A stretch of DNA of 51,807 nucleotides from a virus: IMG/VR virus record IMGVR_UViG_3300048919_000084, positions 1 through 51,807 of that record. The stretch is one strand, 5' to 3'. Below, one piece after another: positions 22,283 to 51,807 of the stretch. The translations under genes were made by a program, and so were the position numbers. Within the stretch, counting starts at the first letter, position 1. The number at the start of each line of letters is the position of its first letter. The notes under the pieces were generated by a model. That model saw only the letters and a program-made list of their open reading frames with translations. It did no database searches and had not been told where the DNA came from.

Positions 22283-24193
22283 ATGGCAATTTACAGAGAT
22301 GGTACGGCTTCGCTTTCAGCCAATGGCAAGGCAACCGGGACCGGTACACAGTGGACTAAACCGCTCTCGCTTATCCGTGTTGGGGCAACTGTAATATTCC
22401 TGAGCGGTTCTAAGCCAGTATTGGGAACTATCTCAGAGATCCTGAGTGATACCGAGATGAATCTCACGTCAACAAACGGTGAACAGGCTGCTGATGGTGA
22501 GTATGCAATTCTTGTTCATGATAGCTTAACTGTTGAGGGGCTTGCTCAGGATGTTACCGAAACGCTAAGGTATTACCAAAGCAGCGAGACGGCAGTTTCA
22601 GATGGGCTTGAAAGCGTAGGGCAATTCGTTACTGAAGCAAAAAATAGTGCCACTGCAGCAAAGCAGAGTGAAAAAAACTCAAAGACTAGCGAGACAAACG
22701 CAAAGTCAAGCGAAAATTATGCATACAACTCATCGCAAGAAGCAAAAACTAGCGAGACAAACGCAAAGTCAAGCGAAAATTATGCATACAACTCATCGCA
22801 AGAAGCAAAAACTAGCGAGGTGAATGCTGCAGCCAGTGCAAGGACTGCTCAAGAGGGAGCCGCTACAGTCGCAAACAAGGCAAATAAAGGAGTTAACTCA
22901 GACATAACAAAACTTAAAGGCCTTGTATCCGATGGATCCACATGGCTGGAAGAGGCCGATCTAAACGCCGGTGAGGGTGAAAGAGGAGTTAATCTTACAT
23001 CCACAAACAGCGTTGGTGTCAGTTTTGGCACCGAAAGCCAGAACGGTGGTGCATCTGTATTCCATAACTTCACTAAAGGAGTAGGTGGGGCTAATACTAA
23101 AGATAAAGCTATCATAGGGGGGTATGGTTCGCGTCCATGGGACGGTATTAACTACACAGCGCATTCCAACGCGGCGATACACTTTGTGCAGGATGGCGAT
23201 ACCACCACCACCAACCACGGAGGCTGGTTACGCCTTTTGGTTACGCCTAAAGGTAAAACCGTTAATAACCGGTATTCTCCATTTATTTTAAGCAACAATG
23301 GCGACACGATTATAGGTAAAGATGTGCCTCTTCACGGCTTTAACGGCGCAGCTTTTCAGGCTAATTTTTCTGATTTTGAAGGTAGAGGCCTGAAGCAGGT
23401 AGTTAATAATGTAAATGAATTACAGCTGTTGACCGGCATAACCCAGGGATCTAGCTGCTCCGGCAACATCAGGTTCAACGCATGCGGTGGATCTCCTCTC
23501 AACCCGGGACCGTTGCAGGCAAACTCCAGCATGTACTTCTCAATGGCGGGTTTCGATGGATCGGCATGGGTTTCTGCTGGTGCTATTATGCAGATGTCAG
23601 CGCCAACATCGTGGAGCACAACTAACCGAGGCTGTGAGATAACGTTTGGCACAACAGCCAATGGAACCATAACGCGATATAACCGATGGGTTATTCAAAA
23701 TGATGGACATTTGGCCCCTTCATTTGATAATAACGTTTCTGTCGGTTGGGCACAGAAAAGGGTTACTGCTGTTTATGCGGTTAATGGAACTGTTCAGACC
23801 TCTGATGGAAGGCTAAAAACTGAGGTTCGTGAATTCTCAGATGCTGAGGTTGCAGCTGCTTGTGCTCTTTCAAAAGAGATCGGGTTTTGGAAGTGGCGGG
23901 AAAAAGTAGCTATCGAGGGAGATCAGGCGAGATCGCATGTTGGTATGACGGTTCAGAGAGCTATTGAAGTGATGGAGTCTTTTGGTCTTGACCCGATGAG
24001 CTACGGATTTATTTGCTATGACTCATGGGACGAATCGACAGAGGTTAACGAATTTGACTCTGATGGAAATGGAATTGAAAACAAATTGCCCGCCGGAGAC
24101 CGTTACAGCTTCAGGTATGAGCAGTTGAACTTATTTATTGCTCGTGGATTTGAGAAGAGACTGAGTGATATTGAGGAAATGCTGAAAAAATAA
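22283..24193 (+). CDS. side tail fibre with C-terminal S74-type intramolecular chaperone domain
   Basis: SDGRLKTEV Ser-Lys motif near residue 507. Repeated SETNAKSSENYAYNSSQEAKT. 636 aa. Confidence 0.8.
   Translation: MAIYRDGTASLSANGKATGTGTQWTKPLSLIRVGATVIFLSGSKPVLGTISEILSDTEMNLTSTNGEQAADGEYAILVHDSLTVEGLAQDVTETLRYYQSSETAVSDGLESVGQFVTEAKNSATAAKQSEKNSKTSETNAKSSENYAYNSSQEAKTSETNAKSSENYAYNSSQEAKTSEVNAAASARTAQEGAATVANKANKGVNSDITKLKGLVSDGSTWLEEADLNAGEGERGVNLTSTNSVGVSFGTESQNGGASVFHNFTKGVGGANTKDKAIIGGYGSRPWDGINYTAHSNAAIHFVQDGDTTTTNHGGWLRLLVTPKGKTVNNRYSPFILSNNGDTIIGKDVPLHGFNGAAFQANFSDFEGRGLKQVVNNVNELQLLTGITQGSSCSGNIRFNACGGSPLNPGPLQANSSMYFSMAGFDGSAWVSAGAIMQMSAPTSWSTTNRGCEITFGTTANGTITRYNRWVIQNDGHLAPSFDNNVSVGWAQKRVTAVYAVNGTVQTSDGRLKTEVREFSDAEVAAACALSKEIGFWKWREKVAIEGDQARSHVGMTVQRAIEVMESFGLDPMSYGFICYDSWDESTEVNEFDSDGNGIENKLPAGDRYSFRYEQLNLFIARGFEKRLSDIEEMLKK
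22685..22810 (+). repeat. perfect 63-bp tandem duplication (2 copies plus 9 bp of a third) inside the tail fibre gene
   Basis: 22685-22747 equals 22748-22810 exactly (actagcgagacaaacgc...gaagcaaaa). Confidence 0.9.
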
Positions 24194-25447: not shown

Positions 25448-26476
25448 TTAGTGCTGTTGAAAAATGTCTTTATGCTGGAACTTAACAAAGTCAGGGGTTG
25501 GCAGCTTAACAGATGGCGCGTTGTTTTCGTATCCTGGCCACACATCAGCCGCCTGGCATGCGTTGAACTGGTGGATTACGCTCACGTACTGCTTGCGGCC
25601 CAACTGAATTTGCTCATCATCAAAAATGAATCCCATCGGCAAGAAAGGCTCTTTTTTCTCTTGAGCGAGCAGCTGAACGATGATGGGGCAAGTTTCTTTG
25701 AATGCTGCTTTAAACAGGTCTCGCTGCAGCGCCATTTTCAAGTAGTAACCAAAGTTATAAGCGTGGCGTCCGAATTCGGATGGCTTTACGCTCTGAGTGG
25801 TCTTGTAATCGGTTATAACTACAACTTCATCATAATGCACGCCATCAATAACGACGTCATACAGCTTGTCTACGTGGTCAATACGGACCTTAACTTTTAC
25901 GCCAAAAATTACGCCAAAAATTGAGATTTCACGTTGAGCAGTTTGGCTGTTGATGATGGCTGCGTGCTCAGGGATATTTAGCAGAGTTGCACGCATAGCG
26001 ATGCACTTATCGTAATCTTCACCTTTTACAAGCTCAACGCCATCACGGCGAGCCTCTGATTCCTGAATCTGTTCAATTAGCCACATAACATTAAGGTCGA
26101 TTTCATTTTTAACCATCATTTCAATCAGATCTGGATACTGCTTGCCTGACGTACCAATCAGGCCACAGGCTTTCAGCTTCGATGCCAGTGCGGTTTGTGA
26201 CGTTATTGCATCCTTGATCTCATCGGCAACGGCAGCGCGGCGATAGGTTGAGTTGAATCGCTCAATCTCAAGCATGATCGTGTGCGACTGAGTACCAAAC
26301 TCCAGAGCCTTTCCTGGTTCTCGAACTGCAAATCGCCATGCAGCCGGGCAGGTTGAGTAGATATCTGAAAGGCTCGATCCTGAAACGTACTCAGCACACC
26401 ATGAGTCTTTGCTGTGATACTCATCGTTTGAAAGCTGGTCATTGGTAAAGATTTTGAACTCTGAATTAGTGTTCAT
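25448..26476 (-). CDS. PD-(D/E)XK (RecB/Cas4-like) exonuclease
   Basis: IDHVD...VVITDYKTT nuclease motif. Start taken at the ATG 8 nt after GGAG (26476), not the track start. Confidence 0.7.
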   Translation of the reverse strand: MNTNSEFKIFTNDQLSNDEYHSKDSWCAEYVSGSSLSDIYSTCPAAWRFAVREPGKALEFGTQSHTIMLEIERFNSTYRRAAVADEIKDAITSQTALASKLKACGLIGTSGKQYPDLIEMMVKNEIDLNVMWLIEQIQESEARRDGVELVKGEDYDKCIAMRATLLNIPEHAAIINSQTAQREISIFGVIFGVKVKVRIDHVDKLYDVVIDGVHYDEVVVITDYKTTQSVKPSEFGRHAYNFGYYLKMALQRDLFKAAFKETCPIIVQLLAQEKKEPFLPMGFIFDDEQIQLGRKQYVSVIHQFNACQAADVWPGYENNAPSVKLPTPDFVKFQHKDIFQQH

Positions 26477-26505
26477 TGCTATTACTCCGTGTTGTCTGTG
26501 CGGTG

Positions 26506-26549
26506 ATACTACTTTCCAGCCAGGTCCATTGCAAGTCAAAAAGTGCTAT
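26506..26549 (-). promoter_or_regulatory. marbox-type promoter cassette E13 (recombination operon)
   Basis: ATAGCACTTTTTGACTTGCA, 18 bp, TAGTAT. The RE1 half is intact and the RE2 half is replaced by TTGACT (10/14). ATG 30 nt downstream. Confidence 0.5.
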
Positions 26550-26553
26550 TTGA

Positions 26554-27042
26554 TTTGTCCCAACGTATCCGGGACAAATTTACTGCCTTGAAATTTTGTC
26601 CAAGGACAAATTCTGAAGAAAAAACCTTTATAAATCAAAGTAACAAACCATCAAAAACACCTTGTCCCAAAAAGTGCCCCGGATTTTCCTGCACCCCTAT
26701 ATATTTTTGTTTTTACCGAGCGCCAAGCAGGAGAGCAGACACTGCACATTAGTAAAATTTAAAGGGGTGTATATATATTTCCGGTGCAGAAAACGGGACA
26801 AATGGGACAACTATAGATAAATATAATAATAATAATCTTGATTATCATATACTTAAGAGCAATATATTTGTCCCATATTTGTCCCATTTCGAACTAAAAA
26901 GTGCGGCATTGAAATCCGGGGCACTTTTTGGGACAAACTTTTGGCGCTCTCTAAAATATGATTTGTAAGGAGTTTTTTTTGATATTTGTCCAAGGACAAA
27001 ATTTCACGCCTTGCCGCAAAAAATGGGACAAAAACGGGACAT
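26554..27042. repeat. non-coding island A: quasi-palindromic array of GGGACAA/TTGTCCC boxes around an A+T-rich core; inverted copy of island B
   Basis: Boxes at 26555, 26571, 26662, 26795, 26804, 26868, 26878, 26930, 27025 and 27036. TTTGTCC-AA-GGACAAA at 26595-26610 and 26985-27000. AT core about 26811-26867. Confidence 0.85.
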
Positions 27043-27056
27043 TAATTCCTGACGGC

Positions 27057-27081
27057 AATAAAAAACCCGCCGAAGCGGGTG
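27057..27081 (-). terminator. intrinsic terminator after the primase gene
   Basis: Minus strand acccgc-ttcg-gcgggt hairpin followed by T-run. Confidence 0.75.
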
Positions 27082-28083: not shown

Positions 28084-28113
28084 TAATCGCGAGCGTTAAC
28101 CAGAAAATGCTAT
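28069..28113 (-). promoter_or_regulatory. degenerate marbox-type cassette E17, with the -10-like TACTAT in the terminator loop
   Basis: ATAGCATTTTCTGGTTAACG, 19 bp, TACTAT. 11/14 marbox positions. Confidence 0.3.
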
Positions 28114-28523
28114 TTCTTGATAAATTCTTTGCGCAGGTTTCTACCGCCAACGCACTTGCCATTTGTGTCAAACTTCAAGTCTGGACGACAGAATGATGCG
28201 GTAAATCCCACTCGACCATTCTTTTTATAATCACGATGGATGCGACGCGCACCTTCTGGTGAGATTCGCCCGCGAGCAAGCCACCAACGGACAGCTCCAT
28301 GCGTCATTCCAAGGCGTCGCACCAGGTTATTAGTGTTGCCATAATATTCAATGACCATCTCCATTCGCTTTCTCAGACCGGCTTTAGCTTCATCCGTCAG
28401 GTCATTAAGAACGGCAGCTTTCTTGCGGGGCTTCTTGTCAGGGCCGCGCCGGGTTCCGTTGTTGCCGTTCTTTGTTCTCTTATCGACTTCACCCGTTGAA
28501 ACTGCTATTTTTTCGTTTTCCAT
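28110..28523 (-). CDS. basic HTH DNA-binding protein (137 aa)
   Basis: Lys/Arg-rich N-terminus. HTH-like LVRRLGMTHGAVRWWLARGRIS. Confidence 0.55.
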   Translation of the reverse strand: MENEKIAVSTGEVDKRTKNGNNGTRRGPDKKPRKKAAVLNDLTDEAKAGLRKRMEMVIEYYGNTNNLVRRLGMTHGAVRWWLARGRISPEGARRIHRDYKKNGRVGFTASFCRPDLKFDTNGKCVGGRNLRKEFIKK

Positions 28524-28614: not shown

Positions 28615-30630
28615 ATGACAAAGAGCATCAGAAAGCAGATCGCAGAGCTGACAGCAGAGCAGATGCAGGCCGTAAAAGACCGCTTCCGTGTGGGCAACAT
28701 CACTCCTTATGACTATCAGGTTGTGATGTACCTTGAGACAGCAAAGCGGATCAAGAATTATGAGCATCCATTTTACTTAAAGGCTTCGGTTTCTGCAGGA
28801 AAGACGCTGTTCTTTGCCATGGTTGCGGCTCAGTGCCAGCGCATGAATATTCCAATGTTAATCCTCGCTCGCCAGGCTGAAATCGTGGAGCAGGATTCAA
28901 TTGAGCTGACAAATCTGGCAGTAAAGAACTCAGTATATTGCGCCGGTTTAAACACTAAATCAGCTTATTTCCCTATCGTTGTTGGATCAGAGGGTACGGT
29001 AATCGGCGGAATCGATAAGGCGCTGGGTGACTATTATCCGATGGTAATCGGGATAGATGAATGCCATCAGCTCGACTGTGAGGATTTGGCTGATGCGATT
29101 GAGCACAAAGAATCACGCGATCAGATGGAGCGTGAGAAAACTCAGCCTTACATGGTAAATGGCGTGGTGGTTGATAAAGACTATGTGCCAAGCGGATTTG
29201 ATACGGTAGCGTGGGGAACAAAGCGAAGCCAGTACACGATTATCATCATGGAGTTTATGAGCCGTTGCCGTGAGCGGTATGGGAGAGAGCTTCGGATATT
29301 TGGCGCGACTGGATCAGAGTTTCGCGGCGTCGTTCCAATCTTAGTGGAAGATAAGAGCCGACCTGGATTCTGGCGCGAGCAGGTAACGGATATCAACACT
29401 GATTACCTGGTCGAATTCGGCTCAGTAGTTCCGACAAACTTTGGCGACGTTGAAGGACTTGGTTATGACTTAAGTGATTTCCATGTGTCCGGTCAGGATG
29501 GCGTGCAGGACTTCACGCAGAAGCAATTAAACGCCATGCAGAAGATCATCAACGATGATGCAAAGATGACTGAAAAAATCATGCATAAAGTCGTGGCGAT
29601 CTGCAAGAACAGGAATAGCGTGCTGATAACATGTGCCGGTAAGCGACATTGTGAGGAAGCCGCGAGCTACTTACCACCAGGATCAACCTATTGCATTATT
29701 ACTGGCACCACTGGAGAGAAGCAGAGAAAGGCCTACCTTGACGCTATCTTTAAAGGAGAAATTAAATACTGCTTTCAGGTTAACGCATTGACAACAGGAG
29801 TCAACCAACCCCTATGGGATACGAGTGTAATCCTGAGAAAGATCGCAAGCCTTACGCTTCTGATTCAGCTTTTAGGCCGTGGCATGCGACAGCTTAAGCA
29901 GTGTCATATTGATTGGGGTTTCAGTAAAGAAGATCACCTTGTTCTGGATTTTGCCGGGTGCATGGATGAAATGGGGCAACTCTACTTCAACCCAATACTC
30001 GAACAGCAGCAATTTCAAAATAAATTCAGAAACGGCAAAGATCCTAAAAAATGCGAGATTTGCGGAACTATGAACAGCTATTACGCTCGCCGCTGCATGC
30101 ATGTTGATTCGGCGGGTTCCCGCTGTGAGCATTTCTGGACATTCCAGACATGTGAGGATCAGCGAGATGAGCGAACAAATAAAATGATCGTGAAAGGTTG
30201 TGGTGCCAAAAACGATGTTGTAGCCAGGATTTGCCGTTGCTGTGATGTGTCTCTGAAAGACCCAAACGAAGCTCTGAGCAATAAGCACTACACTAAATCA
30301 GACTGGTTTGGCGTACTTGGGATGAGCATTTCACCAACTAAAAACCAGCGCGGAGTGGTGGTTACTTATCAGCTCGAAAAGGATGGTGATGTATTCAGTG
30401 CGACGGAGAGATTTTTCCCTGAGTCTGAAAGCAACATTTGCCGCATCAAGTGGCGAGAGTTCTGCAAAGACCACATTGAAGATCCTGCTCAGGCTAAGCT
30501 GGTTGGCTCATACAAAAATGGCATCAAGTGCGTTAGTATGGCTCATCTTTTCCGGACGCCATCGCGCACAACCCACCGCCGCACTGAGAAGAGTGGCGAC
30601 ATTTTAGCTAAGAAGGAGTTCAGGTTGTGA
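28615..30630 (+). CDS. SF2 (DExH) DNA helicase with C-terminal zinc ribbons
   Basis: Walker A SAGKT and DExH box GIDECHQL. CEICG...C.H and CGAKN...CRCC clusters. Confidence 0.85.
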   Translation: MTKSIRKQIAELTAEQMQAVKDRFRVGNITPYDYQVVMYLETAKRIKNYEHPFYLKASVSAGKTLFFAMVAAQCQRMNIPMLILARQAEIVEQDSIELTNLAVKNSVYCAGLNTKSAYFPIVVGSEGTVIGGIDKALGDYYPMVIGIDECHQLDCEDLADAIEHKESRDQMEREKTQPYMVNGVVVDKDYVPSGFDTVAWGTKRSQYTIIIMEFMSRCRERYGRELRIFGATGSEFRGVVPILVEDKSRPGFWREQVTDINTDYLVEFGSVVPTNFGDVEGLGYDLSDFHVSGQDGVQDFTQKQLNAMQKIINDDAKMTEKIMHKVVAICKNRNSVLITCAGKRHCEEAASYLPPGSTYCIITGTTGEKQRKAYLDAIFKGEIKYCFQVNALTTGVNQPLWDTSVILRKIASLTLLIQLLGRGMRQLKQCHIDWGFSKEDHLVLDFAGCMDEMGQLYFNPILEQQQFQNKFRNGKDPKKCEICGTMNSYYARRCMHVDSAGSRCEHFWTFQTCEDQRDERTNKMIVKGCGAKNDVVARICRCCDVSLKDPNEALSNKHYTKSDWFGVLGMSISPTKNQRGVVVTYQLEKDGDVFSATERFFPESESNICRIKWREFCKDHIEDPAQAKLVGSYKNGIKCVSMAHLFRTPSRTTHRRTEKSGDILAKKEFRL

Positions 30631-41469: not shown

Positions 41470-41514
41470 AGTATGCCCCATTGCATTGCTGAGTGGTTAG
41501 GCAAAAAGTGCTAT
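41470..41514 (-). promoter_or_regulatory. marbox-type promoter cassette E12
   Basis: ATAGCACTTTTTGCCTAACC, 19 bp, CATACT. 13/14 marbox positions. The TAG of the box is the stop of the peptidase gene. Confidence 0.6.
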
Positions 41515-41888
41515 CGCTTAATCCACAATGCCTGGCCGGGAAATGGCATCTCATAGCAATCCAGTGATTCCCGCCTGCCATACCACGGACACCAGATTGA
41601 TTCATCCGGATACATCACGATCCAGTGTGAATGGCTGGAGCCTCTTTCCTGCCGGACTCGAACGATTCGCTTACTGCCAATCGTCTTACTGAATGGAACG
41701 CGCTCCATATCCAGGCAGAAGAAGTCACCAACAGCAATCAGATCTTTATAGCTGGATGCGTTCGGGCCTCGGTCAAGCGCACCACGCCAGCCAATCTCAA
41801 TCTCAAAGTAACTGACACCAAGCAGAGTAGCCAGAGCAGCAACCCCGCAATCATCTTTCTTACGCTGATGAATGAATGTCTCGATCAT
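41511..41888 (-). CDS. papain-fold cysteine peptidase, C39-like
   Basis: KKDDCGVAALATLLG (catalytic Cys context) and SHSHWIVMYPDE (His). ATG 8 nt after GGAGG. Confidence 0.55.
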   Translation of the reverse strand: MIETFIHQRKKDDCGVAALATLLGVSYFEIEIGWRGALDRGPNASSYKDLIAVGDFFCLDMERVPFSKTIGSKRIVRVRQERGSSHSHWIVMYPDESIWCPWYGRRESLDCYEMPFPGQALWIKR

Positions 41889-41917
41889 ATCCAAATCCTC
41901 CAGTTGGGTGAGACTGA

Positions 41918-41961
41918 AGCATAACGCCATTCATTCCTGATCGGTAGGCAAAAAGTGCTAT
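41918..41961 (-). promoter_or_regulatory. marbox-type promoter cassette E11
   Basis: ATAGCACTTTTTGCCTACCG, 18 bp, TATGCT. 12/14 marbox positions. ATG 30 nt downstream. Confidence 0.55.
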
Positions 41962-42250
41962 TTCATGAGTGCAGTTACATAGCACGCAATTGAATAGCGC
42001 GTTAGTTAATAGTGAGCGATTGAATAGTGTATGTGTTGTCACCTGACAACTCTTATTGCTTTCAAATCCTTATACTCCCGATCCAGATGTGTATCGTATT
42101 GCGGTACAGCTGTATCACATCGTGGGTTTAGTTATGTATCGGTCATTACATTATTGAGTTTGTGTATGGGTTGATGTGATGAATACACCCACCACGCCGG
42201 ACAATTTTTCCATAATTCCCAGCCAAAAGTATCATGCCAGGCTGGTGAGT

Positions 42251-42719
42251 TTGTCCCATTTGTCCCATTTTCCTGCAATTTTGAGAGTGGGACAAATCGT
42301 GAAAATTTATCCTTATAAAGTAGTAACTTGCGAGCTTGTCCCAACTTGTCCCAAAAAGTGCGGAAAAAAATCCGGGGCACTTTTTAGTGCGAAATGGGAC
42401 ACGATTGGGACAAATATATCTCCCTTAAGTATATGATAATAAAGATTATTATTATTATATGTATATATACTCGTCCCATTTGTCCCATTATCTGCCCCGG
42501 AAATATGAGGGGTGGCATATTGTGGGGAGAAATCTGAATGATAATTCCGGGTTGTTCCGCGCACAAAATATATAAGGGGGGTGGAAAAATCCGGGGCACT
42601 TTTTGGGACAAGGCATTTTTGGGGGTGTCGGCATCTGATTTATAAGGAGTTTTTTGCTCAAATTTGTCCTTGGACAAAAATGTTGACCCAAAAGTTTGTC
42701 CCGGATACAATGGGACAAA
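42251..42719. repeat. non-coding island B: inverted copy of island A (GGGACAA/TTGTCCC array around an A+T-rich core)
   Basis: Boxes at 42251, 42260, 42289, 42336, 42346, 42386, 42397, 42472, 42480, 42605, 42696 and 42712. TTTGTCC-TT-GGACAAA at 42663-42678. The reverse complement of A aligns along its whole length. Confidence 0.85.
42683..42711 (+). promoter_or_regulatory. strong sigma70 promoter TTGACC-17-TACAAT (rightward early promoter)
   Basis: TTGACC at 42683-42688 and TACAAT at 42706-42711. The -10 lies between TTTGTCCC (42695-42702) and GGGACAAA (42712-42719). Confidence 0.7.
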
Positions 42720-42757: not shown

Positions 42758-43207
42758 ATGCGTGAGAGTAAGTTAGCGTTCAGACACTTCCTGCAGCAGG
42801 CAGCAATGAAGCTCGCGGCGGGTGAAGTCGAAAAGATTGAGTTCAATGCACAGCAGATTAGCATTCGATATGAGGGCCTGGAAAACCCTCCTCAGCACTA
42901 TTTTCGCAATGCCATTAACTCGTACAAGCCGTTTAAGGATGCAGGCCATCTCTGCAAGGTCACAAAGCGCGGCGAGGATTACATGATTACCCTGGTCGAA
43001 GGTGGTCAGGCTTCAATCCGGCCCCGCAATGGATACAGCTCGAACGATATGAGTGACGTGATCGTGAAGGTGGTTCAGGCAGTGATGAGCGCGAAGGTTG
43101 ACGCATCACATCTGACCGGTAAGCAGGCGGAAGCATTCCAGGCTGGTGCTGATGCATATCGTGAGGCGCTGGCTGCAACTCTGGGGGAGATGACCAGTCA
43201 TGGCTAA
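42758..43207 (+). CDS. hypothetical protein (149 aa), first gene of the rightward operon
   Basis: RBS GAGGA. ORF track. Confidence 0.6.
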   Translation: MRESKLAFRHFLQQAAMKLAAGEVEKIEFNAQQISIRYEGLENPPQHYFRNAINSYKPFKDAGHLCKVTKRGEDYMITLVEGGQASIRPRNGYSSNDMSDVIVKVVQAVMSAKVDASHLTGKQAEAFQAGADAYREALAATLGEMTSHG

Positions 43208-51607: not shown

Positions 51608-51807
51608 ATGCAAAAGGTAAAAATCAAGATCTTAAATGCCCACACAGCTAACGACTGCCAGACAGACACTTTAGCTGATTGTGGCTTCGCTGCTGGCGAC
51701 ATTGTGTTGGCAGAATTGTTTTCTGATGGTGACGCGGTTGTTGAAAATTCGGACTTTGACCGCGCACTTTGGGAGGGTTTTATCTACCTTGACGCTGGAG
51801 AATTTGA
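51608..51807 (+). CDS. hypothetical protein, 5' part of the junction-spanning 71-aa ORF (continues at 1-143)
   Basis: ATG 7 nt after GGAG and 31 nt after the E15 -10 box. Confidence 0.5.
   Translation, partial: MQKVKIKILNAHTANDCQTDTLADCGFAAGDIVLAELFSDGDAVVENSDFDRALWEGFIYLDAGEF
51681..51807. repeat. 127-bp terminal direct repeat, copy 2
   Basis: Exact copy of 1-127. It lies inside an ORF that continues across the junction. Confidence 0.9.

Follow-up and report, generated by a model that had tools for sequence, protein, structure and literature searches.

A non-coding stretch between the primase and recombination genes of a T1-like phage carries an array of short boxes, mirrored around an A+T-rich centre, and it raises the question whether such an array serves to start DNA replication, to control transcription, or both. 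The DNA analysed, called the window here, is the whole of IMG/VR virus record IMGVR_UViG_3300048919_000084 (51,807 nucleotides), and it represents a complete T1-like (Drexlerviridae) phage genome of about 51.7 kb. T1 belongs to the seven classic T phages, and Drexlerviridae, with more than 800 sequenced members, include therapy phages as well as notorious laboratory and fermenter contaminants. Among GenBank phages this genome has no close DNA relatives; the nearest one is Pantoea phage AAS23 (about 68%), and anything closer comes from raw-read assemblies only. In the literature searched, T1-like phages have no reported origin, iterons or origin-binding protein, and recent genome papers say outright that these were looked for in vain (PMC11447400, PMC7718038, PMC8004638).

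An earlier note on this DNA had called positions 26554-27042 an origin-like or multi-operator array. Its description of a box array around an unwinding-prone core held up, its origin stays a matter of interpretation, and each of the two functional readings seems to fit a different part of the module. As argued below, the island and an inverted second copy of it may be the best candidate so far for the replication origin of T1-like phages, a reading to which we assign a probability of roughly 0.45.

Island A is a gene-free array of boxes

The most likely start of recE is the ATG at 26476 (minus strand), with GGAG ahead of it, and the primase terminator begins at 27065 (and ends at 27080); the non-coding stretch thus spans 26477-27064. 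The proposed location between the primase terminator and the recombination operon is well supported. It had also been supposed that no ORF here is real, in agreement with which none of the ORFs of this stretch, including a small one in the right arm, is conserved in the relative L213. A search for Rfam RNA families returned zero matches across the whole window. The elements of the island, from left to right, are the following.

26477-27064, no strand: island A, the entire non-coding stretch, from the recE start to the primase terminator
26534-26554, minus strand: 21-nt family-wide repeat AATAGCACTTTTTGACTTGC, a promoter-associated element about 60 nt upstream of recE
26555-26577, no strand: boxes TTGTCCC-N9-GGGACAA, an inverted outer pair whose paralogue in island B encloses the -10 of promoter P_R
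26595-26610, no strand: left palindrome TTTGTCCAAGGACAAA, 16 bp, shaped like the operator of a dimeric binding protein, kept in L213 and in island B
26618-26636, minus strand: GATTTATAAAGG plus T-run element, left copy
26662-26686, minus strand: AAATCCGGGGCACTTTTTGGGACAA, left copy, in which a box is joined to a GCACTTTTT element; it points outward
26689-26782, no strand: left-arm insert of about 80 bp, bounded by the inverted pair CACCCCTATATAT / GGGGTGTATATATAT
26795-26810, plus strand: inner-left tandem boxes GGGACAA-AT-GGGACAA (GGGACAAATGGGACAA), 9-bp step, kept in L213 and in island B
26811-26867, no strand: A+T core, 57 bp, 84.2% A+T, candidate DNA-unwinding element or bending site
26868-26885, minus strand: inner-right tandem boxes TTGTCCC-ATAT-TTGTCCC (TTGTCCCATATTTGTCCC), 11-bp step
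26912-26957, plus strand: right copy of AAATCCGGGGCACTTTTTGGGACAA (26912-26936) with an outward promoter-like site, TTGGGA-18-TAAAAT, and no gene downstream
26960-27000, plus strand: GATTTGTAAGGAG plus T8 (26960-26980), then the right 16-bp palindrome (26985-27000)
27025-27042, plus strand: outer-right direct pair, GGGACAA (27025-27031) and a GGGACAT variant (27036-27042)
27065-27080, no strand: bidirectional stem-loop terminator, which ends the primase operon and would also halt rightward transcripts from the island

The 21-nt repeat has been described for phage TLS (PMC11447400). Exact GGGACAA/TTGTCCC heptamers occur nine times in 26554-27042, next to the single GGGACAT variant, which matches the earlier manual count of ten boxes, nine of them exact; the chance expectation given there, 0.06, is also right (about 0.057 per 489 bp from shuffles). 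Enrichment over the whole genome, proposed in the same place as a check, is evident: the window holds 23 exact heptamers as compared with 6.06 +/- 2.47 in shuffles, and 0 of 100 shuffles reached 23. As many as 19 of these 23 are located in two non-coding islands of about 480 bp (A, 26555-27042, and B, 42251-42718). The six-nucleotide core GGACAA is found 13 times in island A, 12 times in island B and 15 times in the other 50.7 kb.

Altogether, the boxes of island A number 13-14, and tandem neighbours are spaced by steps of 9 or 11 bp. Direct repeats make up the majority of boxes, and each island has two 16-bp palindromes; in island A these are the two TTTGTCC-AA-GGACAAA units noticed previously, at 26595-26610 and 26985-27000. 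The tandem pairs next to the core had been placed at 26795-26810 and 26868-26884, with boxes 9-10 bp apart. For the left pair both the position and the step (9 bp) are correct, whereas the right pair ends at 26885 and its step is 11 bp. Similarly, the outer elements are mirrored to different degrees: the left AAATCCGGGGCACTTTTTGGGACAA copy is the reverse complement of the right one, but the left mirror at 26618-26636 reads TAAAGG and is therefore merely an approximate copy of GATTTGTAAGGAG. The island as a whole is indeed a quasi-palindrome, as its single-stranded DNA folds with -91.9 kcal/mol, compared with -46.8 +/- 4.1 in shuffles (z = -10.9). The interior of the left-arm insert shows the lowest conservation within island A; CCCCTATA elements resembling this insert are present in AAS23 and in the relatives L200 and L142.

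Island B is an inverted copy placed over an early promoter

Island B lies 15.5 kb away; over about 500 bp it is about 80% identical to island A read in reverse complement.

42251-42718, no strand: island B, inverted paralogue of island A, with 10 exact boxes and a core at 42415-42472, between divergent early operons
42683-42718, plus strand: early promoter P_R, TTGACC-17-TACAAT (42683-42711), near-consensus sigma-70

Boxes are found in the spacer of P_R (42696-42702) and at its +1 (42712-42718), and a palindrome (42663-42678) is situated just ahead of the -35; this arrangement is kept in the relatives L216 and L218. Because a near-consensus early promoter is overlapped by outer boxes in island B, we regard outer boxes as putative operators, and such operator geometry shows that the module is, at least in part, transcriptional. 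In island A, the outer pair at 26555-26577 overlies a degenerate version of the island B promoter. In relatives, a second type of repeat array adjoins island B.

The module is conserved while its box varies by lineage

Box columns are 88-91% identical when island A is compared with its orthologue in L213 or with island B, whereas the non-box island columns are 54-57% identical in those comparisons (Fisher p = 1.7e-8 and 5e-11), and four-fold degenerate sites of the flanking genes are 38% identical. The right arm of island A is 65-66% conserved, with every element retained, though it faces a terminator only. Purifying selection on an arm that serves no gene looks like what might be expected of an origin.

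The core and its phased flanking boxes are syntenic in 57 of the 57 related loci with the recE start covered. The box itself differs between lineages, being GGGACAA, GTGTAACA, GGTAAGAT, GCGG(A/T)(A/G)GAT or G(A/G)nAACA. In T1, TGTAACA occurs six times in total, always inside the two islands, and in the Klebsiella phage Sin4 an inverted box pair surrounds the core in both islands. Conservation of the core and of several elements while the box varies by lineage implies a phage-encoded reader protein. All T1-like phages examined carry the module at two places, ahead of the recE-erf-ssb operon and where the early operons diverge. In T1-type genomes the island travels with recE, not with the primase; in T1 itself it lies between the divergent genes cor and recE.

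The cores are the least stable DNA of the genome

The core that had been described as some 57 bp of about 85% A+T corresponds to 26811-26867 (84.2% A+T). It is directional, and its sequence is kept across genera (ATAGATA..TATAATAATAA..CTT.ATT.TCATATA). When 60-bp windows of the genome are ranked by computed duplex stability, the core of island A comes out as the least stable and that of island B as the next, with -59 and -58 kcal/mol against a genome mean of -83.7 (SD 4.6), that is, more than 5 SD away. The island cores of T1 and Sin4 likewise rank first and second, again more than 5 SD from the mean. A conserved and extremely unstable core with inner tandem boxes on its flanks looks like an origin. 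A conserved sigma-70 promoter was not found within the core, where only weak, chance-level matches occur. An exact IHF consensus is present in 8 of 48 distinct cores, in one orientation throughout, as compared with 1.2 expected, and the core of the phage analysed here carries it with one mismatch.

Two proteins are candidates for the box reader

Two phage proteins are candidates for reading the boxes.

28110-28523, minus strand: candidate 1, homologue of T1 gp23, with a basic N-terminal arm, a Cro-fold helix-turn-helix and a C-terminal motif
42758-43207, plus strand: candidate 2, DUF7174 protein, product of the gene that comes first after P_R

The gp23 homologue matches Xfaso-1 Cro with a Foldseek probability of 1.0 (TM-score about 0.7, target-normalised), and every family member encodes this Cro-fold protein. 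Its N-terminal arm and C-terminal motif are conserved and its recognition helix is variable; however, the recognition helices of phages with very different boxes (e.g. Webervirus and the GAnAACA groups) are nearly alike. On plasmids, where gp23 homologues might have hinted at an initiator role, a single match was found, in a record listed as a Paraclostridium plasmid of 49,647 bp, which we suspect to be a T1-like phage genome. The model of the DUF7174 protein has a winged-helix-like domain at the N terminus and long helices behind it, towards the C terminus. Its putative recognition helix is identical among phages sharing the same box, although the whole proteins are just 66-71% identical.

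We also assessed covariation (a Mantel-type test on 53 islands) between boxes and segments of gp23, helicase, primase and RecE. Partial correlations of 0.15-0.24 were obtained for every segment, and none rose above the shared-ancestry signal once relatedness was controlled. No further DNA-binding domains were detected in the early genes by Pfam or PHROGs. Two helicases were considered as origin binders and rejected. The SF2 helicase (28615-30630), a possible counterpart of UL9, is a RadD homologue (6jde, E = 2.6e-32), and its C-terminal indel subtypes do not track the box class. The C-terminal part of the DUF3987 helicase, considered as an origin-binding domain similar to that of P4 alpha, shows no local divergence from AAS23 despite the different boxes; a sequence search for PDB relatives of this part gave none.

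Origin, operators or another function

If the islands were purely transcriptional, they would be the two principal promoter regions for early and middle genes, with the boxes as operators at which a Cro-like protein acts as shut-off repressor or switch, a lytic-phage counterpart of lambda OL/OR. The core would then be a promoter, an UP-element or bending DNA (e.g. an IHF site), the arms might be folded into a repressosome, and replication would begin elsewhere or by recombination. We find this quite possible, though short of an even chance. It is consistent with the position of boxes on TTGACC-17-TACAAT (one in the spacer, one at +1) and of the palindrome ahead of its -35, all kept in two relatives, and with 16-bp palindromes shaped like classic dimeric helix-turn-helix operators, in a family whose members all encode a protein with a confident Cro fold. 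Location fits as well: island B sits between divergent early operons, and the other island stays with recE across gene orders, as expected of a promoter region, with cor and recE divergent in T1. The excess of exact IHF sites in the cores, all in one orientation, points the same way, and so does the failure to find signals specific for replication. Cumulative GC and AT skew curves follow gene orientation only, and since skew follows transcription, they are uninformative on the origin; neither island contains a GATC site, and no DnaA box turned up in island A even when one mismatch was allowed. As these three signals give no support, the origin is something that we infer. On the other hand, some 13 mirror-symmetric sites over about 490 bp far exceed what one or two promoters need, and the right arm of island A, which serves no gene and meets a terminator only, is nevertheless conserved against the 38% neutral background. 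Moreover, the core is 100-150 bp away from the outward promoters, too far for an UP element, promoter scans of the islands give no more sites than shuffled sequence, and a purely transcriptional role does not predict that the two most meltable genome sites are the cores in three genera.

Two further explanations concern neither replication initiation at the core nor promoters. The islands might serve another DNA transaction, being pac sites for the small terminase subunit or places where RecE/Erf start recombination or recombination-dependent replication, which we hold to be improbable. A box array around a bendable centre recalls the pac site of phage P1, the GenBank records of T1 and Sin4 begin inside the equivalent of island B, position 1 of T1 is annotated as the start of a 2.8-kb terminal repeat, the recE-erf-ssb operon always adjoins island A, and the other type of repeat array that adjoins island B in relatives would suit such a function too. 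However, T1 and TLS package by headful series from a single start in one direction (PMC11447400), to which inverted copies 15.5 kb apart are a poor fit. Variation of the boxes by lineage also argues against this explanation, their overlap with a promoter serves no packaging role, and the position where a record starts is possibly approximate only. Still far less probable is a selfish or decaying palindromic repeat (MITE-like, in two copies), or a chance cluster, functionless for the phage. Although a quasi-palindrome in two inverted copies could suggest it, synteny of the module in all 57 loci, with lineage-specific boxes, and selection acting specifically on boxes effectively refute it; in addition, no shuffle reached the observed box count, and the genome contains neither further copies nor a transposase.

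We thus return to the origin reading and propose how the module could work; this whole explanation is, in our view, as probable as the origin reading itself. Each island would be a cis site for the assembly of a nucleoprotein complex, present in two inverted paralogous copies. A phage-encoded, sequence-specific protein may bind about 13 lineage-specific boxes per island (here TGGGACAAAT), which form tandem pairs with a spacing of one helical turn, inverted pairs and 16-bp palindromes, mirror-symmetric about the core. The outer boxes would act as operators of the outward-facing early promoters, and the inner tandem boxes would load the binding protein to the left and right of the core. Being the easiest melting site of the genome, the core could then open to start replication by means of the phage primase and DUF3987 helicase. 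A more speculative version, which we consider rather unlikely to hold in full, is that a twin inverted origin pair flanks the block of replication genes and is fired by a small phage protein, either gp23 or DUF7174. The same protein, placed on the outer boxes, would shut early promoters, and the early-to-middle switch would in this way be coupled to the start of replication by a single lineage-specific protein.

What the module offers for work on T1-like phages

The module supplies two cis sites, the box of each lineage and a pair of candidate binders. If the islands are origins, their cloned copies should replicate when the phage is present, or shield cells from it by titrating out a factor that replication needs. 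In that case, lineage-specific boxes would also define groups of replication or "immunity" specificity in the family, useful for phage engineering and as decoys. If they are operator arrays only, they would still constitute the first defined regulatory circuit of T1-like phages.

Comparison with known systems

Lambda OL and OR are two inverted operator arrays of three lineage-specific sites each, placed over early promoters and bound by Cro and CI. The islands resemble them in being two inverted paralogous arrays with palindromes and lineage-specific sites over early promoters, in a genome encoding a Cro-fold protein, and at P_R (42683-42711) the sites do overlap the promoter, in its spacer and at +1. 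Unlike OL and OR, they have about 13 sites per array instead of three, many direct tandem repeats and a conserved A+T core inside. While arrays of the Cro/CI type all control flanking genes, one arm here, the right arm of island A, controls none; furthermore, the phage is strictly lytic and its Cro-fold gene adjoins neither array.

In herpes simplex virus, the protein binding oriS and oriL is UL9, an SF2 helicase with a C-terminal DNA-binding domain. These origins share with the islands a palindrome with an A+T centre, inverted boxes, a location between divergent replication or early promoters, and more than one copy, including an inverted one. They differ in that the phage has as its SF2 helicase a RadD homologue, the C-terminal part of which does not follow the boxes; the two systems are not homologous, and their hosts come from different domains of life.

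In phage SPP1, oriL and oriR are bound by G38P, and in P4, ori and crr are bound by the alpha protein. In both, as proposed for the phage analysed here, one phage protein has short repeats of the same kind at two cis sites far apart, beside A+T-rich DNA. The difference is that neither G38P nor the C-terminal domain of alpha has a detectable homologue in our phage, whose primase also lacks the helicase and DNA-binding parts of alpha. SPP1 is cited in PMC8004638.

A search for the motif itself led to unrelated, uncultivated viral contigs (L093/L065, L113, L025, L044, L080 and L056) in which GGGACAA arrays, both tandem and inverted, lie directly next to the 3' end of a primase-helicase gene, an independent precedent that favours the origin reading. 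They show the same heptamer, the 9-10-bp tandem step and inverted sets around a spacer of about 60 bp; unlike in the islands, the arrays abut the 3' end of the presumed initiator gene, and the spacers are not always A+T-rich. By phmmer and blastp, no protein was common to our phage and the phages with these arrays. The resemblance is probably convergent, because no protein is shared and both the spacers and the location differ.

At iteron origins (lambda ori with O; plasmids pPS10, F and P1) direct iterons initiate replication, inverted half-sites form the operator of the initiator gene, and lambdoid iterons vary along with O. The islands depart from this scheme in having boxes on both sides of the A+T segment, mirrored, in two copies per genome, without DnaA boxes, and neither inside nor beside an identified initiator gene; the set of host-factor sites (DnaA, GATC, IHF) that is common, not universal, at iteron origins was not found. 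What they share with it is the short repeats spaced by about one helical turn and varying by lineage, next to an easily melted A+T-rich segment that is, by calculation, the least stable duplex, and the reuse of the same box, inverted, over a promoter.

The boxes upstream of recE form a quasi-palindrome

The ATG at 26476 is the likely start of recE, so the non-coding stretch runs from 26477 to 27064. Within it lies island A, a box-rich segment (26554-27042) in which an earlier note had counted ten boxes, that is copies of the 7-mer GGGACAA/TTGTCCC. Nine of these proved exact and the tenth is a GGGACAT variant, while the whole genome holds 23 exact boxes against 6.06 +/- 2.47 in shuffled sequences. 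All features described in that note were found, with only small coordinate corrections:

26595-26610 and 26985-27000: two 16-bp palindromes, TTTGTCCAAGGACAAA
26662-26686 and 26912-26936: mirrored 25-mers
26795-26810: tandem box pair with a 9-bp step
26811-26867: A+T-rich core, 57 bp, 84.2% A+T
26868-26885: second tandem pair

A spacing of 9-10 bp had been proposed for both pairs; it holds for the first one, but the second has an 11-bp step and extends to 26885. Single-stranded DNA folding of the island (-91.9 kcal/mol vs -46.8 +/- 4.1 for shuffled sequences; z = -10.9) pairs the left arm with the right arm and thus confirms the quasi-palindrome. A poorly conserved insert (26689-26782) makes the left arm some 80 bp longer than the right. 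This extra DNA is bordered by the inverted pair CACCCCTATATAT (26689-26703) and GGGGTGTATATATAT (26763-26782). Elements of the type CCCCTATA(G/T)ATA, which are also present in Pantoea phage AAS23 and the related loci L200 and L135 and directly flank the core in L142, appear to be one more conserved site.

Island A has an inverted twin

Positions 1-127 are identical to 51681-51807. The genome is therefore complete, at about 51.7 kb, and the record is either a circularly closed assembly or terminally redundant, its unique coordinates ending at 51680. The gene layout is that of T1-like phages (Drexlerviridae), and the closest GenBank phage is AAS23, with a DNA identity of only about 68%.

Gene order in the window
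Structural genes, plus strand
ssb, erf and recE, minus strand, then island A
Primase and a small helix-turn-helix protein, minus strand
SF2 helicase, VRR-NUC nuclease and Dam-type methylase, plus strand
DUF3987 helicase operon, minus strand, then island B
Many small early genes, plus strand, beyond island B

The tail-fibre gene (22283-24193) carries a near-perfect 63-bp tandem duplication (22680-22805, 98% identity), which adds 21 in-frame residues.

Only four exact boxes lie outside island A and a second island, island B (42251-42718), whose reverse complement is about 80% identical to island A over some 500 bp. Core, tandem pairs, 25-mer, TAAGGAG/T-run element, palindromes and an outer inverted pair are common to both. 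As island B is an inverted copy, island A is one half of an element pair; the two stand 15.5 kb apart in inverted orientation, with most replication genes between them.

Just left of island B (41960-42250) there is another kind of repeat, an array whose AATAGCnnGC / ATTGCGYGC units recur about every 15 bp and are clearest in relatives (L216 2150-2215, L200 6560-6640, L201 7080-7160). Another protein may bind there, e.g. the small terminase subunit or an ATAGCAC-reading factor. The T1 equivalent of island B has extra repeats of its own, GATTACG and GATTAAC. The first gene to the left (41511-41930, minus strand), found in L200 and L216 and missing from AAS23, encodes 139 residues with the motif DCGVAALATLLG, which we take, from its sequence and without a family match, to resemble a papain/C39-type cysteine peptidase.

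The boxes are under selection and the design is shared by the whole family

Closer relatives were available only in public sequencing-run assemblies: L213, which has island A with the same boxes (helicase 93%, primase 87% identical), and L216, L217 and L218, which have island B. Between this phage and L213 the flanking genes agree at only 38% of their four-fold degenerate sites, and island A is 49-73% identical depending on the segment. Box columns are 88% identical in the comparison with L213 and 91% in that with island B, whereas other island columns reach 54-57% (Fisher p = 1.7e-8 and 5e-11, respectively); aligning non-coding DNA raises identity somewhat, but the contrast within one alignment is unaffected. 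The right arm of island A points at nothing but the primase terminator, yet it is 65-66% identical and keeps all its elements, while a small ORF in it is not conserved in comparison with L213.

The family comparison covered the whole T1 and Sin4 genomes, 75 loci at the SF2 helicase and 14 at the DUF3987 helicase. The same design stands upstream of recE in 57 of the 57 loci covering its start: about 50-100 bp of A+T core with short repeated boxes on both flanks; those towards recE are tandem, and those beyond the core are often inverted. The cores are alike in sequence (ATAGATA...AATAAATAAACTnTT...TTTnATnTATA) and constant in orientation to recE. Other elements that recur across genera are ATTTGCGG/ATTTACGCC, CCCCTATAGATA and a TAAGGAG with a T-run behind it; the readers of these conserved elements would be host proteins or conserved proteins of the phages. 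The boxes differ by lineage.

Box by lineage
GGGACAA: this phage
GTGTAACA/GGTTACAA: T1
GGTAAGAT: Klebsiella weberviruses
GCGG(A/T)(A/G)GAT: AAS23 and relatives
G(A/G)nAACA: most other loci

In T1 (48.8 kb) all six copies of TGTAACA fall inside its two islands. Island A of Sin4 has 12 copies of the box, and in island B of Sin4 an inverted pair flanks the core. The island B core is the reverse complement of the island A core in this phage, T1 and Sin4. The twin modules are real, under selection and a hallmark of the whole family, with lineage-specific boxes around a conserved A+T core.

An exact IHF consensus, WATCAANNNNTTR, was seen in 8 of 48 distinct island cores (L126, L137, L139, L140, L141, L173, L179 and L190) against 1.2 expected, always in the same orientation; the core of this phage has it with one mismatch (TATCATATACTTA, 26843-26855).

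The outer boxes have the geometry of an operator

The first early gene is preceded by a near-consensus promoter, P_R (TTGACC-17-TACAAT, 42683-42711), which reads out of island B at its right end. This promoter has one box in the spacer, one right after the -10 and a palindrome ending 4 bp upstream of the -35. This arrangement is kept in L216 (TTGACA-17-TATAGT) and L218, the +1 box is kept in L217, and at the equivalent place in T1 its own box forms an inverted pair. A protein bound to these boxes would block RNA polymerase. The outer boxes show the classic geometry of an operator, irrespective of other island roles.

T1-like phages have a 21-nt repeat, aaATAGCACnnnTTGnTAAAA (described for TLS in PMC11447400), of which the window contains about 14 copies, each oriented along transcription:

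22260, 26537, 41502, 41949: minus-strand copies
31045, 35156, 43614, 43986, 44202, 45051, 45594, 47687, 50069, 50759: other copies

Eight copies are followed by a G+C hairpin and a TATTAT/CATAAT hexamer; the hexamer lies about 22 bp from TTGCTA, which exceeds the spacing of a normal -35/-10 pair. The arms of the islands contain GGGGCACTTTTTGGGACAA, in which this repeat and the box are fused.

The inner boxes and core are a candidate origin

According to the papers searched, no origin, iterons or origin-binding protein is known for T1-like phages (PMC11447400, PMC7718038, PMC8004638). Of all 60-bp duplex windows in the genome, the two cores are by far the least stable (-58.2 and -59.0 kcal/mol; mean -83.7, SD 4.6; next window -68.7), and in T1 and Sin4 the island cores likewise rank first and second. 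Tandem boxes one helical turn apart abut both core edges in opposite orientation, an arrangement typical of initiator sites that surround an unwinding element. When viral contigs were searched with the tandem box, several unrelated phages proved to carry such arrays of GGGACAA, tandem and inverted, which directly adjoin or overlap the 3' end of large primase/helicase genes, the usual place of an origin.

GGGACAA arrays in unrelated contigs of uncultivated viruses
L093 9439-9640
L113 2758-3050
L025 3600-3910
L044 154-430
L080 10015-10250
L056 181-400

These arrays are probably the origins of their phages; the precedent comes from a motif search and not from homology, and none of the proteins of these contigs resembles any protein of this phage. 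Cumulative GC skew of the genome tracks transcription only and lends an origin no support, neither island has a GATC site, and island A has no DnaA box.

The earlier note had left the choice between an origin and a multi-operator array; the operator part stands for the outer boxes, while the origin(s) of T1-like phages have no better candidate at present than the inner boxes with the core. We favour a combined origin and operator, with a probability of roughly 45%. That the islands serve transcriptional control only is somewhat less probable and would be our second choice. On one hand, the recE module is inverted in T1-type genomes and the island travels with recE, not with the primase, which is how a promoter region behaves. 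On the other hand, about 13 mirror-symmetric sites over 490 bp, including a conserved gene-less arm, exceed what promoter control requires. A role in packaging or recombination seems very unlikely, and a selfish repeat or chance is hardly credible.

Two proteins are candidate readers of the boxes

Because different boxes occur in phages of one host species, the reader, i.e. the putative box-binding protein, should be phage-encoded. No protein other than the homologue of T1 gp23 (28110-28523) has a sequence-specific DNA-binding domain that can be recognised. In its model (pLDDT 82.5), residues 44-101 form a Cro-type helix-turn-helix, best matched by the Cro proteins of Xfaso-1 and N15. Across the phage family the basic N-terminal arm and a C-terminal motif of this protein are nearly invariant and the recognition helix is variable. 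However, this helix is almost the same in weberviruses and GAnAACA-type phages, whose boxes are very different, and in this phage it differs from that of L213 at 4 of 10 positions despite shared boxes.

The DUF7174 gene (42758-43207) is the first after P_R, the position held by cro in lambda. The model of its product shows an N-terminal domain of winged-helix-like topology, predicted with confidence (pLDDT about 90), and then long C-terminal helices. Its structural matches, mostly winged-helix proteins, are weak (best E = 0.15); the top one is CtsR, which binds tandem heptamers. The putative recognition helix is identical in four box-sharing phages whose whole proteins are only 66-71% identical, and different in AAS23, L200 and T1. 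In a formal covariation test over 53 islands, no protein segment stood out from the general relatedness signal. The SF2 helicase, a RadD homologue, was rejected as reader, as was the C-terminal part of the DUF3987 helicase, in which phages with different boxes show no divergence.

The twin modules make the old origin question of T1-like phages directly testable. Their design is a variation on known kinds, namely iteron origins, operator arrays and palindromic viral origins, and is not categorically new.
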